Shown here: positions 669 to 9,872 of the stretch, one piece after another
Position numbering within the stretch: position 1 is the stretch's first letter
How the letters are laid out: each line of letters begins with the position of its first letter
Source: a virus
Virus genome (UHGV): UHGV-1550841
Direction: 5' to 3' (one strand)
DNA length: 10,154 nucleotides
Program-made: the position numbers and the translations under genes
The notes under the pieces: model-generated
Told to the model about the DNA's origin: nothing
The model's database searches: none
Seen by the model: the letters and a program-made list of their open reading frames with translations, nothing else

Positions 669-1925
669 GTGCTTACCGATACAAAATTAAAAAACCTCAA
701 GCCACAGGACAAACTGTACAAAGTTTCCGATCGTGACGGGCTGTATGTGGCTGTGCTTACGTCAGGCACGGTCTCGTTTCGCTACGACTACCGTATCAAC
801 GGTCGCCGCGAAACGCTGGTAATCGGGCAGTATGGGCGTGACGGTATCAGTCTGGCAGAAGCGCGAGAAGAACTGATTGCTGCAAAGAAGCTGCTTAAAG
901 CAGGCCAGTCACCGGCTGCGGCTAAACGTGACGGTATCAAAAAGATTCGTGGTGCCGAGACGTTTGCGGTACATACCGACAGTTATATGAAACACGTCAT
1001 CCTGGCTGACAGTACCCGCGCAATGAAACAGGCGGTGATCGACCGTGACATACTTCCGGTTCTTGGCAATAAAATGATGGCTGAAATTACCACATCGATG
1101 GTTCGTGATTTGTGTGACCGGATTGTCGAACGCGGTGGCCGGGCAACAGCAGTGCAGGCCAGGGAGATCATCAGCAGCGTATACCGTCACGCCAATGACC
1201 GTGGTCATGGTTTGTTTAATCCTGCGGCTGACATTAAACCTTCGTCTATCGCCATATTTAAACCACGAGAGCGAACACTGACACCAGAAGAAATTGGCCT
1301 GTTCTTCCGCACGCTGGATGCCATTGGTGCTATGGGCACTATGAAAATGGCTTTAAAGCTGGTGCTTATCACTATGGTTCGTAAAGGCGAATTCACCAAC
1401 GCAACGTGGGATGAAATAGATTTTAAAAAATGGACATGGACAATTCCTTCAGACCGCATGAAGGGAAGCCGGGCGCACGTTATTTACCTGCCTAAACAGG
1501 CTCAGGATATATTGGTCGGGTTGCAGATGTGCGCTGGTGGAAGTGAATATCTGGTTCCTGGTCGTTACAATTTCCGGAAGCCATTATCTAATGCCGCGCT
1601 GAACTCTCTGATCGACAGAACGGTGAAAATAATAAATGAAGATGGTGAGCATATTCAGGGCTTCACCGTACACGATATGCGCCGTACAGCCAGTACGTTG
1701 TTGCATGAGGCTGGTTATCCTTCAGACTGGATTGAAAAGGCTCTGGCACATGAGCAGAAAGGTGTGCGCGCCGTATATAACAAAGCGGAATACGCCAGAC
1801 AGCGCGCCTACATGTTGCAGCAGTGGGCCGATATGATTGATTCCTGGATTAACGGGGAGCATACGGATCTGATTCCGTTCTCCCCGTCGAAGTTTGAGAG
1901 GTGGATGGAAGACAGTAATAAATAA
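669..1925 (+). CDS. int: Tyrosine site-specific integrase, P4-type (arm-binding N-terminal domain plus catalytic domain)
   Basis: 418 aa. N-terminus LTDTKLKNLKP...GLYVAV...SFRYDYR fits the P4-type integrase arm-binding domain. C-terminal region has the HxxR motif (VHDMRRTAST) and conserved Tyr region. GTG at 669 is the only start available (in-frame TGA at 663-665); SD is weak. Stop TAA 1923-1925. Confidence 0.9.
   Translation: MLTDTKLKNLKPQDKLYKVSDRDGLYVAVLTSGTVSFRYDYRINGRRETLVIGQYGRDGISLAEAREELIAAKKLLKAGQSPAAAKRDGIKKIRGAETFAVHTDSYMKHVILADSTRAMKQAVIDRDILPVLGNKMMAEITTSMVRDLCDRIVERGGRATAVQAREIISSVYRHANDRGHGLFNPAADIKPSSIAIFKPRERTLTPEEIGLFFRTLDAIGAMGTMKMALKLVLITMVRKGEFTNATWDEIDFKKWTWTIPSDRMKGSRAHVIYLPKQAQDILVGLQMCAGGSEYLVPGRYNFRKPLSNAALNSLIDRTVKIINEDGEHIQGFTVHDMRRTASTLLHEAGYPSDWIEKALAHEQKGVRAVYNKAEYARQRAYMLQQWADMIDSWINGEHTDLIPFSPSKFERWMEDSNK
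838..847 (+). repeat. GTGACGGTAT 10-mer copy 3, inside the integrase coding sequence
   Basis: Exact 10-mer; extended match GTGACGGTATCA shared with the copy at 928. Confidence 0.35.
928..937 (+). repeat. GTGACGGTAT 10-mer copy 4, inside the integrase coding sequence
   Basis: Exact 10-mer; extended 12-mer GTGACGGTATCA identical to the copy at 838. Confidence 0.35.
1181..1190 (-). repeat. GTGACGGTAT 10-mer copy 5 (inverted), inside the integrase coding sequence
   Basis: Plus strand reads ATACCGTCAC. It encodes different amino acids from the other in-gene copies, so the repeat is a DNA-level feature. Confidence 0.35.
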
Positions 1926-6170: not shown

Positions 6171-6323
6171 TCAGCCCTCCCATATCTCGTTATCGTTGGC
6201 CACATCGCGAGCTTCTTTGCTGACGAAAGCCCACTTAATGCCTTCCTGTAAGGTGCGGAACTTCCAGCTCATGAATCCGCATGCAGTAACGCAGTACCAA
6301 CCGTTGATGATTTTCCACTGCAT
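6171..6323 (-). CDS. Small ORF (50 aa), first gene of the leftward early operon; not N-like
   Basis: Manually translated (below the size cut-off of the ORF track): MQWKIINGWYCVTACGFMSWKFRTLQEGIKWAFVSKEARDVANDNEIWEG. ATG 6323 preceded by GAGGT; stop TGA 6171-6173 sits immediately before the next gene's SD and ATG. Confidence 0.3.
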   Translation of the reverse strand: MQWKIINGWYCVTACGFMSWKFRTLQEGIKWAFVSKEARDVANDNEIWEG

Positions 6324-6342: not shown

Positions 6343-6357
6343 TTACCGTTGGGGTAA
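6343..6357. promoter_or_regulatory. Operator OL-proximal: perfect palindrome TTACC-GTTGG-GGTAA
   Basis: Perfect half-sites. Abuts the proposed -10 of the leftward early promoter. Confidence 0.5.
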
Positions 6358-6385
6358 TAATTATGCGTATCTGGTTTGATGTCAA
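6357..6385 (-). promoter_or_regulatory. PL-like sigma70 promoter for the leftward early operon (-35 TTGACA at 6385-6380, 17-bp spacer, -10 AATTAT at 6362-6357)
   Basis: Consensus -35 hexamer read on the minus strand; 17-bp spacer; moderate -10. Bracketed by two operator palindromes. Confidence 0.4.
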
Positions 6386-6404: not shown

Positions 6405-6419
6405 TTACCCGTTAGGTAA
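6405..6419. promoter_or_regulatory. Operator OL-distal: perfect palindrome TTACC-CGTTA-GGTAA
   Basis: Perfect half-sites, 19 bp upstream of the -35 of the PL-like promoter; centre-to-centre 62 bp from the site at 6343-6357. Confidence 0.5.
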
Positions 6420-6430
6420 TCTAACAGGCA

Positions 6431-6455
6431 ATAAAAAAGCCGCCAGAAGGCGGCT
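6431..6455 (-). terminator. Rho-independent terminator downstream of the repressor gene (minus strand)
   Basis: Stem AGCCGCC (6438-6444) / GGCGGCT (6449-6455) with AGAA loop; on the minus strand it is followed by a run of T (plus-strand AAAAAA at 6433-6438). Confidence 0.6.
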
Positions 6456-6476
6456 TACTTACTGAAAAATATGATT

Positions 6477-7061
6477 TTATTGTTTGTTTTTTTCGTTCTG
6501 GTTGATGACAAATTCAATGTAACTTTCGATCTTTGCTTTCTCGGTTTCGGGTAACAATGCGTAGCGCGAGCGGTCATAGTTGATAGTCGCAGGGTCGTGC
6601 GGGTGAATCAGTAGTTCATAGCCGTGACGCCCGAATGCGGATGCAACATTCTCCAGGGTGGAAATGGAAACGCTGACCTCATTGTTTAACAGGCGGCTGA
6701 TTGTCACCTGGGCGACGCCGGATGCGCGGTGAAGTTTTCCCTGTGTTGAAAGGTCGCGGCTTTCGCTCATCCAGCGTTCCAGGTTGTGAGCCGCCAGCTG
6801 ACCTATATCGCTCGGGCCGACAGGCTGAAAACCCTCCTGAGAAAGCGAACGATCAATATCAAGCCAGTTACGGGGTTTATTGGCGGCAGCTTCAATTTTT
6901 CGCGCAACCTGGTCGCCGATAACCTTCTTGCCAAGAGCCCAGCGGTTTACCAGATTTGCCTGAGTTCCAAGTTTTTCTGCCATCCGCGTCTGAACACCAT
7001 TGAATTCACGGTCGATCAAGTCGTTGAGATTTTGCCTGCGGACGTCCTGGATACTTTTCAT
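6477..7061 (-). CDS. Immunity repressor candidate with two tandem HTH (XRE-like) domains and no recognisable LexA/S24-type autocleavage domain
   Basis: 194 aa. N-terminal HTH-like segment (TRMAEKLGTQANLVNRW) and a second HTH-like segment (LHRASGVAQVTISRLLNNEVSVSISTLENVASAFG). Transcribed divergently from the Cro-like gene; flanked by operator palindromes on both sides and followed by a hairpin terminator. Confidence 0.75.
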   Translation of the reverse strand: MKSIQDVRRQNLNDLIDREFNGVQTRMAEKLGTQANLVNRWALGKKVIGDQVARKIEAAANKPRNWLDIDRSLSQEGFQPVGPSDIGQLAAHNLERWMSESRDLSTQGKLHRASGVAQVTISRLLNNEVSVSISTLENVASAFGRHGYELLIHPHDPATINYDRSRYALLPETEKAKIESYIEFVINQNEKNKQ

Positions 7062-7116: not shown

Positions 7117-7131
7117 TTACCCAACAGGTAA
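7117..7131. promoter_or_regulatory. Operator OR site 1: perfect palindrome TTACC-CAACA-GGTAA
   Basis: Perfect half-sites in the divergent repressor / Cro-like intergenic region. Confidence 0.5.
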
Positions 7132-7133
7132 AT

Positions 7134-7148
7134 GCACCTCATAGGTAA
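7134..7148. promoter_or_regulatory. Operator OR site 2 (imperfect): GCACC-TCATA-GGTAA
   Basis: 8/10 match to the half-site consensus, 2 bp from site 1. Confidence 0.3.
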
Positions 7149-7164
7149 CTATCCTTGATTTTTG

Positions 7165-7179
7165 TTACCTTATGGGTGA
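7165..7179. promoter_or_regulatory. Operator OR site 3 (imperfect): TTACC-TTATG-GGTGA
   Basis: 9/10 match; lies between a -35-like TTGATT (7155-7160) and the Cro-like start. Confidence 0.3.
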
Positions 7180-7215: not shown

Positions 7216-7446
7216 ATGAGCGATAACGGACATTTCGATTTCAAAAAGCACTGGCTTGCACTTACTCCGGATGAGCGTGAAGCCTTCGCACAGGAAGCCG
7301 GAACGACGAGTCACTATATCCAGACTCACTTAACAGGTAAGCGCAAAATGCCAGGTAAAGTATTGATGAATGGGCTTTTTAAAGCCTGTAAAACAAGACA
7401 ATGGTTGCGCTCAAAAGCAGAACTGGCATACTTCTTCTACTCATGA
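7216..7446 (+). CDS. Cro-like (possibly CII-like) small HTH regulator, first gene of the rightward operon
   Basis: 76 aa. HTH-like segment EAFAQEAGTTSHYIQTHLTGKRKMPGKVLMNG. Position directly divergent from the repressor across the operator cluster. Confidence 0.55.
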   Translation: MSDNGHFDFKKHWLALTPDEREAFAQEAGTTSHYIQTHLTGKRKMPGKVLMNGLFKACKTRQWLRSKAELAYFFYS

Positions 7447-7468
7447 TATCCAGCTACACCCCTCTGTA

Positions 7469-7490
7469 GACCGCCACCCGGCGGTCTTTT
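7469..7490 (+). terminator. tR1-like rho-independent terminator after the Cro-like gene
   Basis: Stem GACCGCC (7469-7475) / GGCGGTC (7480-7486), loop ACCC, then TTTT. Confidence 0.5.
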
Positions 7491-7501
7491 CATATCTATT
7501 C

Positions 7502-7516
7502 GCACCTTAAAGGTAA
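7502..7516. promoter_or_regulatory. Operator-like palindrome (imperfect): GCACC-TTAAA-GGTAA, upstream of the replication genes
   Basis: 8/10 match; same TTAAA spacer as the site at 612-626 and same GCACC left half as OR site 2. Confidence 0.3.
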
Positions 7517-7597
7517 TAAAAAACCAAATATGGTTGATCTTTTTTTTGTGTCAGCACAAAATAACCGTAATCCCAATACTAATAACAGGGCTTACCA

Positions 7598-7797
7598 TGG
7601 AAATCATTACACGTATTGATGCCGCAAAGCGCGGACTTAAACGCTACTACACCGGAAAAACATGTAAGCACGGACATGACAGTGAACGCTGGGTTTACAA
7701 TGGACACTGTGTTGAGTGCACCATGGAATCAAACCGTCGTATCAGGGCAGAGATTAAGCAGATCATGATTAATTCCTCCCCACAACATTCAAGCTGA
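7598..7797 (+). CDS. Small Cys/His-rich (putative zinc-binding) protein at the cII position
   Basis: 66 aa from ATG 7598 (MEIITRIDAAKRGLKRYYTGKTCKHGHDSERWVYNGHCVEC...), motif C-x-H-x-H...C-x2-C. The longer ORF in the track starts at TTG 7534 and would run through the operator and terminator region, so the ATG is preferred. Confidence 0.4.
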
Positions 7798-7812: not shown

Positions 7813-8628
7813 ATGAGCAGACATGCAACAGATTGGGCCTGGGAGACAGATCCAGGTAGCTCGTCATTAAAGCTCATACTGCTCTCGATGGCTGACAGAG
7901 CCGATGAATATAACCTCTGCTACCCCAGCATAGAACGCCTCGTTAAAGACACTTGCCTGAATAAAAAAACCGTGCAGGCCGGGCTTATATCGCTCATGAA
8001 AATGGGGCTTATTTCAGATACCGGAGAGAGAAAGGGAGCGACGAAAAGAGTGCGGGTTTTCTCTCTTAATATAACCAAAAACGGGAACATTAAAGGCAAC
8101 CGGGAAGGGGGTAACGAACCCGAAAACGGTAATGTTACCGAAAACGGGAATATACCCAAAAACGGGATGTTGAATGATCCCAAAAACGGGATGTTGAATG
8201 ATCCCAAAAACGGGATCCAGAACCAGTCATATAACCAGTCATTTAACCAAGAGAGGGAGAGCAGGACAAAAAGCGGGGATTCTGTGCCTCATGACCCCGG
8301 AGCAAACAACGCCGTGATGAATAACTTTGTTCCTCCTGGTGGGCCAGGGCAATTAGGCAAATTTGTCATGCATGAACAATGGCAGCCATCAGATGACTTT
8401 CTTCGGAAAAGCTCATTGCAGGGGATCTACCTGGACAGTCTGCCAACGGCACAGGAACTTGCAGAGTTCAGAATTTACTGGATGGCTGAGGGTAAGGCAT
8501 ACCATCAGGCACAGTGGGAGCAGAAGCTGGCAAGGCGGCTGCAGATTAGCAGACAGAAGCAATCAACATTACCTGATAACAACGTTCCGCACTGGAACAG
8601 CCCTGAAGCATGGGAGGATTTCTTGTGA
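7813..8628 (+). CDS. Replication initiator, lambda-O-like in organisation (N-terminal winged-helix, internal iteron-encoded repeat linker, C-terminal domain)
   Basis: 271 aa. GGAG SD 8 nt upstream of ATG 7813. N-terminal HTH-like region (LKLILLSMADRADEYNLCYPSIERLVKDTCLNKKTVQAGLISLMKMGLI). The central part is encoded by direct DNA repeats (iterons). Directly followed by a lambda-P-like gene. Confidence 0.75.
   Translation: MSRHATDWAWETDPGSSSLKLILLSMADRADEYNLCYPSIERLVKDTCLNKKTVQAGLISLMKMGLISDTGERKGATKRVRVFSLNITKNGNIKGNREGGNEPENGNVTENGNIPKNGMLNDPKNGMLNDPKNGIQNQSYNQSFNQERESRTKSGDSVPHDPGANNAVMNNFVPPGGPGQLGKFVMHEQWQPSDDFLRKSSLQGIYLDSLPTAQELAEFRIYWMAEGKAYHQAQWEQKLARRLQISRQKQSTLPDNNVPHWNSPEAWEDFL
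8076..8218. repeat. Origin-type iterons inside the O-like gene: six copies of an AAAACGG(G) core, including a perfect 24-bp tandem repeat
   Basis: Cores start at 8078, 8123, 8141, 8159, 8183 and 8207. CCCAAAAACGGGATGTTGAATGAT occurs at 8155-8178 and 8179-8202, with a partial third copy at 8203-8218. Followed by the direct repeat AACCAGTCAT x2 (8221-8242). Confidence 0.6.
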
Positions 8629-9410
8629 ACAACGTTTTTACCGCGATACAAAACCGTGACGGAGAAGCCCTTTCTCGCATGTCAGGTTATGAGCATCAGT
8701 ACGTCAACAATGACAATGTGGTGAACATGTCAGCAGAGAGGCTTGTTGATGCCCTTTTTAAACAGCTGAAACAACTGTTTCCGGCGGCAGTGGTAACCAA
8801 CCTGAAGACGCCAGAGCAGGAAGTTGCTGCAAAACAGCAGTGGATTGCTGCGTTTGCCGAAGGGGGGATCCGAACCCGTGAACAGGTTTCTGCTGGTATG
8901 CGCCACGCCCGCGCCAGTGAATCTCCGTTCTGGCCGTCTCCAGGGCAATTTATCAAGTGGTGCAAAGACAGCAAGATGGTTCTTGGCGTCACCATTGACG
9001 ATGTGATGGCGGAGTTTCACCGGTACAGCAAGGAAAAAAGTTTATATCCTGGTGGTCCCGAAAGATTCCCGTGGCGACATCCGGTTATGTACTGGGTCGT
9101 ATGTGATACCCGCCGTGCAATGTATCAGCGCCAGCTTAGCGAGATTGAGGTTGAGAAACACGCACGCAGGCTGCTCGATGATTGGGCGAAAAAGGTGGCT
9201 TCCGGACAGCAGATACCCGATCCGGTGATCAGCATACAGGCAAAGCCAGAGCCCATGAGTACGCCTCCGGACACAGGGAGAGACGTTTACCATCCACCAG
9301 GGCGAAGTTTCGGGTGCATGCCTAACGCCGCCACCCTTGGGGGAATAACACCGGCGCAGTGGCTGATGGAGGAATACAGGCGGGGAAAGGCGGCAGGATT
9401 TATCAAGTAA
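8625..9410 (+). CDS. Lambda-P-like replication protein (helicase loader)
   Basis: Translation aligns by eye with lambda P as I recall it (FPA...QW.AAF.E.GI.T.EQV.AGMR.AR....PF.PSPGQF..WC, and LYP....PW...YW). GTG 8625 has a GGGAGGA SD at 8612-8618 and overlaps the O-like stop; ATG 8610 is an alternative start. Confidence 0.8.
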   Translation: MNNVFTAIQNRDGEALSRMSGYEHQYVNNDNVVNMSAERLVDALFKQLKQLFPAAVVTNLKTPEQEVAAKQQWIAAFAEGGIRTREQVSAGMRHARASESPFWPSPGQFIKWCKDSKMVLGVTIDDVMAEFHRYSKEKSLYPGGPERFPWRHPVMYWVVCDTRRAMYQRQLSEIEVEKHARRLLDDWAKKVASGQQIPDPVISIQAKPEPMSTPPDTGRDVYHPPGRSFGCMPNAATLGGITPAQWLMEEYRRGKAAGFIK

Positions 9411-9415
9411 TACCA

Positions 9416-9435
9416 GCGCGATAGCGCATTTTTTT
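9416..9435 (+). terminator. Weak hairpin plus T-tract after the P-like gene
   Basis: GCGC-GATA-GCGC followed by ATTTTTTT. Stem is only 4 bp, so strength is doubtful. Confidence 0.25.
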
Positions 9436-9447
9436 ACGTCTCAATAA

Positions 9448-9462
9448 TTACCTATCAGGTAA
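9448..9462. promoter_or_regulatory. Operator: perfect palindrome TTACC-TATCA-GGTAA
   Basis: Perfect half-sites, 19 bp upstream of a -35-like TTGATT. Confidence 0.5.
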
Positions 9463-9481
9463 CAAAACATTCTAAAATCTA

Positions 9482-9510
9482 TTGATTTCGTGTCTTATGT
9501 GGTTTTTAAT
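9482..9510 (+). promoter_or_regulatory. Sigma70-like promoter (-35 TTGATT at 9482-9487, 17-bp spacer, -10 TTTAAT at 9505-9510) bracketed by two operators
   Basis: Hexamers and spacing read directly; geometry relative to the flanking palindromes is identical to the PL-like promoter. Confidence 0.4.
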
Positions 9511-9524
9511 TACCTTAGAGGTAA
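9510..9524. promoter_or_regulatory. Operator: perfect palindrome TTACC-TTAGA-GGTAA overlapping the -10, start region and SD of the DUF1064-like gene
   Basis: Perfect half-sites; centre-to-centre 62 bp from the site at 9448-9462. Confidence 0.5.
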
Positions 9525-9527
9525 ATC

Positions 9528-9872
9528 ATGAGAAAACAGATACAGGCTCTTGGTCGACTCAAAACAGGCCAGATGAACAAAACAGAATCTGCGTATTGCC
9601 AGCACCTTGAGCAGCGTAAACGTGCAGGGGAAATCGCCTGGTATCGATTCGAGGGTATCAAGTTGCGGTTAGCTGACAACACGTTCTATACGCCCGATTT
9701 TGCTGTGATGCTCGCCACCGGCGAGATGGAACTGCACGAAGTGAAAGGTTTCTGGACCGACGACGCCAGGGTGAAAACCAAAGTCGCCGCAGATCAGTAT
9801 CCGTTCCGAATCATCGGGGTAACGGTTAAGCCAAAGAAAGCAGGTGGTGGCTGGAACATCGAAGAGTTCTGA
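9528..9872 (+). CDS. DUF1064-like phage protein (small, possibly nuclease-fold)
   Basis: 114 aa. Pattern KTESAY..HLEQRKRAGEI..YRFEGIKLRLADNTFYTPDF...HEVKGFWT resembles what I recall of the DUF1064 prophage family. AGAGGT SD 5 nt upstream of ATG. Confidence 0.5.
   Translation: MRKQIQALGRLKTGQMNKTESAYCQHLEQRKRAGEIAWYRFEGIKLRLADNTFYTPDFAVMLATGEMELHEVKGFWTDDARVKTKVAADQYPFRIIGVTVKPKKAGGGWNIEEF

Follow-up and report, generated by a model that had tools for sequence, protein, structure and literature searches.

The locus at positions 9416–9527 of the UHGV virus genome UHGV-1550841 raises the question of how a temperate phage turns on the genes that lie beyond its replication genes. We analyzed a 10,154-nucleotide stretch of this genome (the window), in which genes for an O/DnaT-like initiator (7813–8628) and a lambda-P-like helicase loader (P; 8610–9410, stop codon 9408–9410) are followed by a gene for a 114-residue DUF1064/Holliday-junction-resolvase-like protein (9528–9872, plus strand; PF06356, phrog_190). 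The original prediction proposed that the intervening region holds an operator-flanked promoter with the same geometry as the leftward early promoter. Our results indicate that this region probably controls a third early transcription unit, whose promoter (the third promoter) would be gated by the phage repressor (Rep) and whose first gene is the DUF1064 gene.

The window belongs to a temperate podophage of the genus Uetakevirus (the epsilon15/phiV10/SPC32H group) and is not lambdoid. Its right 4.2 kb shares 96.9–98.3% identity with the Escherichia phages PH444, vB_EcoP_PAS61 (PAS61), phiv142-3, phiV10, and TL-2011b, and matches to the Enterobacter phages BUCT554 and Tyrion are at about 78%. 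A comparison of the region with lambda is loose, because a Uetakevirus carries a Rep/antirepressor switch.

Predicted operators and promoter elements after the replication genes

Two exact 15-bp palindromes of the form TTACC-N5-GGTAA lie between P and the DUF1064 gene. The distal operator, TTACCTATCAGGTAA, occupies 9448–9462 (centre 9455) and is centred near −62 relative to the predicted start site. The proximal operator, TTACCTTAGAGGTAA, occupies 9510–9524 (centre 9517) and covers both the predicted start and the Shine-Dalgarno sequence GAGG (9518–9521), which stands 6 nt ahead of the ATG at 9528. The leftward early promoter is enclosed in the same manner by a proximal operator, TTACCGTTGGGGTAA (6343–6357, centre 6350), and a distal operator, TTACCCGTTAGGTAA (6405–6419, centre 6412). 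Direct reading and a pattern search both gave a centre-to-centre distance of 62 bp at each promoter (9455/9517 and 6350/6412), as predicted. The rest of the geometry is also identical at the two promoters: the −35 element begins 19 bp from the distal palindrome, and the −10 element spaced at 17 bp shares its last T with the proximal palindrome.

The motif is far more frequent in the window than expected. The pattern search found seven copies with at most one mismatch against an expectation of 0.20, and none of 200 shuffled sequences reached seven. Exact matches start at 9448, 9510, 6343, 6405, and 7117, and all copies in the window are intergenic. Three operators occupy the repressor/cro-like intergenic region, the expected place of the primary operators: a perfect one at 7117–7131, a degenerate one (GCACC...GGTAA) at 7134–7148, and one reading TTACC...GGTGA at 7165–7179, between the −35 and −10 elements of the rightward promoter. 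Their 17/30–31-bp arrangement is common to epsilon15 and SPC32H. A further near-perfect operator, TTACCTTAAAGGTAT, is located at 612–626, 43 bp upstream of the integrase start.

The third promoter reads on the plus strand. Its −35 element is TTGATT (9482–9487), which begins 19 bp after the distal operator and lies within a conserved CTATTGA. A conserved spacer motif, CTTATGTGGTT (9494–9504), is placed just upstream of the −10 region (9505–9511), which can be read as TTTAAT at 9505–9510 with 17-bp spacing or as TTAATT at 9506–9511 with 18-bp spacing and runs one or two bases into the proximal operator. No extended −10 (TG at −15/−14) is present at either candidate hexamer, as read in the window and its relatives. 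From the −35 and −10 elements, transcription is predicted to start at about 9517–9518, the centre of the proximal operator. The core of the leftward early promoter (6357–6385, minus strand) consists of TTGACA (6385–6380), a 17-bp spacer, and AATTAT (6362–6357); it is conserved in the relatives, and a consensus promoter scan called it with a 10/12 match.

A short element resembling an intrinsic terminator precedes the third promoter on the plus strand (9416–9435), beginning 6 bp after the P stop codon. It consists of a GCGC/GATA/GCGC hairpin (9416–9427; −7.4 kcal/mol, z = −2.5), an A, and a T7 run (9429–9435), and a variable linker (9436–9447) joins it to the distal operator. The stem and the T-run are invariant in 77 closely related loci, and among 13 more diverse relatives they show single-base changes only, with a variable loop. 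The phiV10 record annotates a terminator at the counterpart of this element. The leftward promoter module has a comparable arrangement, with the terminator of the repressor gene (6437–6456, minus strand; 8-bp stem, −17.5 kcal/mol, T-run) directly upstream in the direction of transcription. The same order of terminator, operator, promoter, and operator at both promoters, together with the conserved hairpin, suggests that each module forms a start point of its own, insulated from its surroundings.

Conservation of the module and the repressor that would read it

To follow the module beyond the closest relatives, we compared 13 diverse elements: seven GenBank phages and six prophages (from Superficieibacter, Erwinia, Klebsiella, two Citrobacter species, and Scandinavium) that were retrieved purely by homology of the repressor protein. 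Their hosts span Escherichia, Salmonella, Klebsiella, Enterobacter, Citrobacter, Erwinia, Superficieibacter, and Scandinavium. The operator pair after the replication genes is present in all 13, with a spacing of 62 bp in 12 and 61 bp in one, and the pair at the leftward promoter is 61–63 bp apart in every element scanned for it. The distance from the distal operator to the −35 element (TTGATT, TTGAAA, or TTGATA) is 19 bp in 13/13. Anchored on the distal operator, the sequences align without gaps: GCGC-N4-GCGC-A-T7 comes first, then some 12 nt of variable linker, the operator, a 19-bp stretch whose last bases are CTA, and the −35 element. The 3' part of the module consists of a 17-bp spacer with a conserved 3' half (TRTGGWT), TTTAAT, TTAAAT, or ATAAAT, the second operator, 2–5 nt, and the ATG.

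The gene behind the module encodes a DUF1064 protein in the window, SPC32H, and BUCT554, and a RusA-like protein in epsilon15 and Tyrion. The downstream gene has thus been swapped while the module was kept, which indicates that what is conserved at this mosaic joint is the regulatory module. In IMG/VR, a pattern scan gave 172 instances (125 unique) in two clean classes, one corresponding to the leftward promoter (TTGACA/T ... AATTAT/GATTAT) and the other to the third promoter.

The window Rep (194 residues; 6477–7061, minus strand; HTH_3 domain) shows a full-length match to the SPC32H repressor (PDB 5D50; E-value 4e-42), and its C-terminal half matches 5D4Z, the tetramer-forming SPC32H fragment that was crystallized alone. 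It aligns with the Reps of epsilon15, SPC32H, and the Klebsiella and Enterobacter phages; the identity between the two repressor clades is 42–44%. A later paper that summarizes the work on SPC32H Rep (PMC9638917) reports that the protein is a tetramer on DNA, that the pair of DNA-binding domains that recognizes a palindrome is drawn from different dimers, that the dimer binds weakly, and that a single tetramer is enough for repression.

The operator arms are the same in both clades, and the centres differ. They are A/T-rich and AAAAR-like in epsilon15, SPC32H, and Klebsiella, and of the form Y-N-N-N-R in the phiV10 clade, whose Rep accepts centres containing G/C. The distal operator of the third promoter obeys the centre rule of its clade as the other operators do. 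This agreement between centre composition and Rep clade at all operators, the sole usable covariation, points to one protein binding all sites. A covariation test on the half-sites themselves was set aside, because every full-length Rep homologue found uses TTACC/GGTAA and there is no differing half-site to exploit; more distant Rep matches cover the N-terminal part only and are not accompanied by comparable palindromes. Rep probably binds both palindromes of the third promoter.

Annotation in epsilon15 agrees with this assignment. The record AY150271.2 carries protein_bind features labelled 'repressor' at three sites at the leftward promoter, at 35906–35922, and upstream of the terminase, portal, and tailspike operons, and all of them contain TTACC-N5-GGTAA; none is annotated between the repressor and cro-like genes. 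In the anchored alignment of the 13 relatives, the site at 35906–35922, immediately ahead of the first gene beyond the replication genes, corresponds in position to window 9448–9462. Its proximal partner is present in sequence at 35969–35983 and carries no annotation. The distal operator is thus already known at the level of annotation, and the paired, promoter-enclosing geometry has no annotation in the phage records examined, including those of phiV10 and epsilon15. A keyword search of the literature, whose reach did not extend to the primary SPC32H and epsilon15 genome papers, found no operator mapping for this group. The paper on vB_EcoP_ZX5 gives predicted promoters and quantitative PCR of lysis genes under repressor overexpression, and nothing on the third promoter.

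Further operator copies occur across the genomes of the relatives. All are intergenic, and they head the terminase, portal, tailspike, and lysis operons (PAS61 12433, 15611, and 33044; epsilon15 12, 2932, 19896, and 24704). The operator on the tailspike side adjoins a LexA-box-like palindrome ahead of a small leftward gene, presumably that of an antirepressor. Because operators also head the late operons, the third promoter is better regarded as part of a genome-wide regulon than as a special second site, and Rep appears to gate every transcription unit directly. In complete relatives, the third operon runs through nin-like genes to a conserved 112-residue protein encoded directly before the terminase genes. 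This protein, which lies outside the window, is assigned to phrog_536 ('transcriptional regulator') in every complete relative (e.g., phiV10 15157–15495), and neither PDB nor Pfam gives a match. We regard it as a candidate regulator of the late genes, and from the position of its gene one may speculate that the third promoter also controls entry into late expression.

Weighing the explanations

The shared motif, the epsilon15 annotation, the conserved geometry, and the preceding hairpin-T7 element make an independent repressor-gated promoter the most economical reading, and direct repressor control of the third early operon is well supported by inference from them. The original prediction also held that the genes after P are under such control rather than N-type antitermination. 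The data are consistent with this. The predicted absence of an N-like Arg-rich protein at the head of the leftward operon was borne out, since the first product (50 residues) has two Arg; the first two products of this operon belong to PHROGs of unknown function and have no Pfam match. A search for nut-like elements likewise agreed with the prediction, although boxB-type hairpins were not searched systematically: there is one boxA-like match only, with three mismatches and within the P gene, which is below what chance would give, and no Rfam family reaches the threshold in the window.

Several observations weigh against this reading. The consensus scan does not call the third promoter, because its −10 hexamer has T rather than A at position 2, and the lack of an A at −11 is a fixed state in 77/77 close relatives. 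The promoter in the E. coli clade of the window may therefore be weak or need an activator. The spacer motif CTTATGTGGTT recurs at late-operon promoters that have no −35 element, which hints at an additional factor. The hairpin at 9416–9435 has a stem of only four pairs, below the threshold of the terminator scan, and read-through from the rightward promoter may contribute to expression. A strong hairpin at 7468–7487 (8 bp, −15 kcal/mol, poor T-run; an annotated terminator in phiV10) lies between the cro-like and replication genes. Since it separates the rightward promoter from the replication genes, some read-through must occur there, and this limits the case against antitermination. As for looping, a 62-bp loop is tight, and inspection found no consensus site for integration host factor (IHF) between the operators; the nearest sequence, AATCAATAGATTT on the minus strand, has the last base wrong.

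The −10 element without an A at −11 counts in favour of the leading alternative, which we nevertheless consider unlikely. It holds that this is an activator-dependent promoter of the middle or late type, in which CTTATGTGGTT upstream of a weak −10 region is the determinant read by a phage-encoded factor and Rep adds only silencing in the lysogen; relief from Rep would then not be enough for expression after induction. Like the TTGATT −35 element, the spacer motif is invariant in the 77 loci, and it recurs at the −35-less promoters of the portal, tailspike, and lysis operons of PAS61 and epsilon15. The phage also encodes PerC-like and AlpA-like regulators in addition to the conserved phrog_536 protein. 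However, unlike the late promoters, the third promoter has a good and invariant −35 element at the same distance as in the leftward promoter. The sigma-70 scan passes the homologous promoter in epsilon15 (TTGAAA-18-TAAATT) and in the Klebsiella phage Kp4865-1 (TTGATA-18-TAAATT); in the Scandinavium prophage, where the operator spacing is one base shorter, TAAATT is found at 17 bp. Moreover, some relatives carry a related spacer motif in their leftward promoter as well, and the motif could accordingly be an ancestral trait common to both promoters instead of a site for an activator.

The motif itself can be written C(A/T)TATGTGGTT and stands just upstream of the −10 element at the third promoter. 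In relatives it is also found in the promoters of the portal, tailspike, and lysis operons (PAS61 at about 15667, 33088, and 37402; epsilon15 at about 2988 and 24751). Those promoters have one repressor operator upstream and a GGTAAT half-site downstream, and they lack a −35 element. The motif may be a site for a phage transcription factor. A relative of it is found, inverted, at 7521–7532. This lies within a leftward promoter-like element (7502–7554, minus strand; CTGACA-16-CATATT, 9/12) downstream of the cro-like gene, aimed through that gene at the repressor gene. The element is followed by a degenerate operator, GCACCTTAAAGGTAA (7502–7516), which is also present in relatives. Over 27 nt, the element shows 85% complementarity to the third-promoter core, and its position is like that of the establishment promoter of lambda.

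A second alternative, which we regard as improbable, gives the region little or no promoter function: Rep bound after a leaky terminator would act as a roadblock or insulator against rightward read-through, or would serve as an anchor for long-range looping to the operators at a distance of 2.3 kb. The weakness of the upstream hairpin, the start of the distal operator 12 bp past the T-run, and the order of terminator and then operator, which is repeated at the leftward promoter, are all compatible with this view. On the other hand, a roadblock would have no use for an invariant CTATTGA held 19 bp from the operator or for a −10 element fused to the second operator, and both the −35 and −10 features are kept in 13/13 relatives, mirroring the leftward promoter, which is a bona fide consensus promoter. 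That the palindromes are chance occurrences, or a recombination linker conserved at a module boundary without a regulatory role, is very hard to sustain: the region is indeed at a mosaic junction, with different downstream genes in different relatives, but the motif far exceeds its expected frequency, its arms are invariant while centres and linkers vary, it is the same as in the repressor/cro operators, and its spacing is fixed across genera.

We therefore return to the repressor-gated promoter, for which the following course of events is proposed. Transcription from the rightward promoter through the cro-, O-, and P-like genes would meet the hairpin and T7 run at 9416–9435. A separate sigma-70-type promoter (TTGATT at 9482–9487 and a −10 element at about 9505–9511) would then start the next operon near 9517–9518, with the DUF1064 gene first. 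In the lysogen, Rep would occupy both perfect 15-bp palindromes, and its presence at the proximal one would block RNA polymerase directly. Most likely, one Rep tetramer would bridge both operators and enclose the core promoter in a small loop; two cooperating Rep units would give the same result. The leftward early promoter would use the same design. By analogy with SPC32H, a LexA-controlled antirepressor (Ant) would relieve the repression on induction. The anatomy of the sequence, its conservation, the homology of Rep, and the motif in common with the other operators are direct observations; from them we infer Rep binding at the two sites, promoter activity, the start site, looping, and the efficiency of the terminator.

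The operator spacing bears on the proposed loop. A distance of 62 bp corresponds to about 5.9 helical turns at 10.5 bp per turn, which places both sites on the same helical face, and it is kept within 1 bp across genera. Such conserved integral-turn spacing makes sense if one multivalent repressor holds both sites. Cooperative or looped repression, as the original prediction suggested, is thus plausible by analogy with the tetrameric SPC32H homologue.

The distal operators also show an unusual pattern of variation. The sample consisted of 80 prophage loci from IMG/VR in which Rep is 100% identical to the window Rep. Among loci with identical Rep, the operator arms, the −35 element, the spacer, and the −10 element are essentially invariant. 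The centre of the distal operator, however, has 27 alleles in 70 loci at the third promoter and 14 alleles at the leftward promoter. Nucleotide diversity is 0.44 at 9453–9457 (0.54 for the middle three bases) and 0.27 at 6410–6414 (0.37 for the middle three bases), compared with 0.22 in the linkers at 9437–9447 and 6420–6430 and a mean of 0.046 at 600 four-fold degenerate sites. The distal centres are therefore 8–12 times more variable than four-fold degenerate sites, and the most diverse 5-bp windows of the whole 10 kb are at and beside the two distal operators. In contrast, the centres of the operators in the repressor/cro-like interval hardly vary, and the distal centre is constrained to AAAAR in the epsilon15/SPC32H/Klebsiella repressor clade. 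Relaxed constraint by itself should not push diversity this far above the four-fold rate.

Three candidate processes were tried and rejected. Phase variation does not fit, since pairs of loci with less than 0.2% flank divergence share identical centres. Gene conversion between the two promoters is not seen: distal centres are shared within a genome in 0/70 cases against 0.9 expected. A flip-flop inversion of the centre is contradicted by an allele set that is not closed under reverse complement.

A broader scheme can be offered tentatively, and we think it rather doubtful. The lysis-lysogeny circuit of these phages would be flat, with no antitermination cascade and one tetrameric Rep gating every operon. 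Micro-loops of 62 bp, each held by a single tetramer via its two trans-assembled DNA-binding heads, would wrap the core of the two strongest early promoters, and the hypervariable, non-contacted distal centres would reflect either diversifying selection tuning loop stability and the set-point of spontaneous induction, or a mutational hotspot that is protein-bound or hairpin-associated.

Neighbouring features and comparison with other phages

The remainder of the window has the gene order of a temperate phage. The integrase gene (669–1925, plus strand) is followed by the leftward early operon (minus strand), which ends at 6323. Rightward of the repressor gene are the cro-like gene (7216–7446) and a small gene (7597–7797), and then the replication genes. 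The operator at 612–626, upstream of the integrase gene, lies inside an inverted repeat of 7 bp (ACGGTAT...ATACCGT). Close relatives keep this operator unchanged, and phiV10, PAS61, and epsilon15 also have it; the epsilon15 record annotates integrase and RNase III sites at its counterpart. Inside the O/DnaT-like gene, an array of 24-nt direct repeats (8067–8219; consensus GAATRWWCCCAAAAACGGGAT...) resembles origin iterons, as in a lambda-type ori. Ahead of the gene after DUF1064, the segment 9885–9935 contains an IHF-consensus-like AATCAATAAGTTA, then ATGTGGAT, and then GGGTAAAG with an ATG, and an IHF site is annotated at the equivalent place in epsilon15.

The closest known system is that of epsilon15, SPC32H, and phiV10, with which the window shares a homologous Rep, the TTACC-N5-GGTAA operator, and the position of an annotated epsilon15 site; it is about 98% identical to phiV10-type phages. 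The differences are that only the distal site is annotated at the third promoter of epsilon15, and that the epsilon15/SPC32H clade keeps A/T-rich operator centres.

The arrangement resembles OL/PL and OR/PR of lambda in that one repressor acts at palindromic operators overlapping divergent early promoters, with a graded tripartite operator between the repressor and cro-like genes and with O-like and P-like replication genes downstream of cro. However, lambda is not known to have CI operators after P, and its nin region and Q are reached by N-dependent read-through. The window has a third promoter, predicted to be repressor-gated, after a terminator, and no nut-like element or N-like protein was found in it. 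Moreover, each of the two matching promoters has two operators 62 bp apart instead of three adjacent ones, and the repressor family and the induction route differ.

The C1 repressor of P1 offers a functional analogy only. It directly controls many separate operons, including the gene for a late-promoter activator, and here operators head every major operon in complete relatives; C1 is an unrelated repressor with an asymmetric operator. With respect to looping, lac (O1–O3), gal (OE–OI), and lambda CI at sites 5–6 turns apart share with the window two same-face operators that bracket a promoter and integral-turn spacing; the repressor is multivalent in those systems and presumably so here. The spacing of 62 bp is at the short end of known loops, and looping in the window is deduced from the spacing and the tetramer of the homologue.

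The finding is a phiV10-clade instance of a conserved and partly annotated family feature, and it is otherwise conventional operator-promoter control. It provides a testable wiring diagram in which three early operons would each be gated directly by Rep, two of them with an identical design of a promoter between operators. Operators paired at a constant 62 bp lend themselves to asking whether one tetramer of the structurally unusual SPC32H type bridges two sites. This phage group includes reporter and typing phages of O157 and Salmonella as well as common enterobacterial prophages, and the lambda template of N-dependent expression beyond P should not be applied to them.

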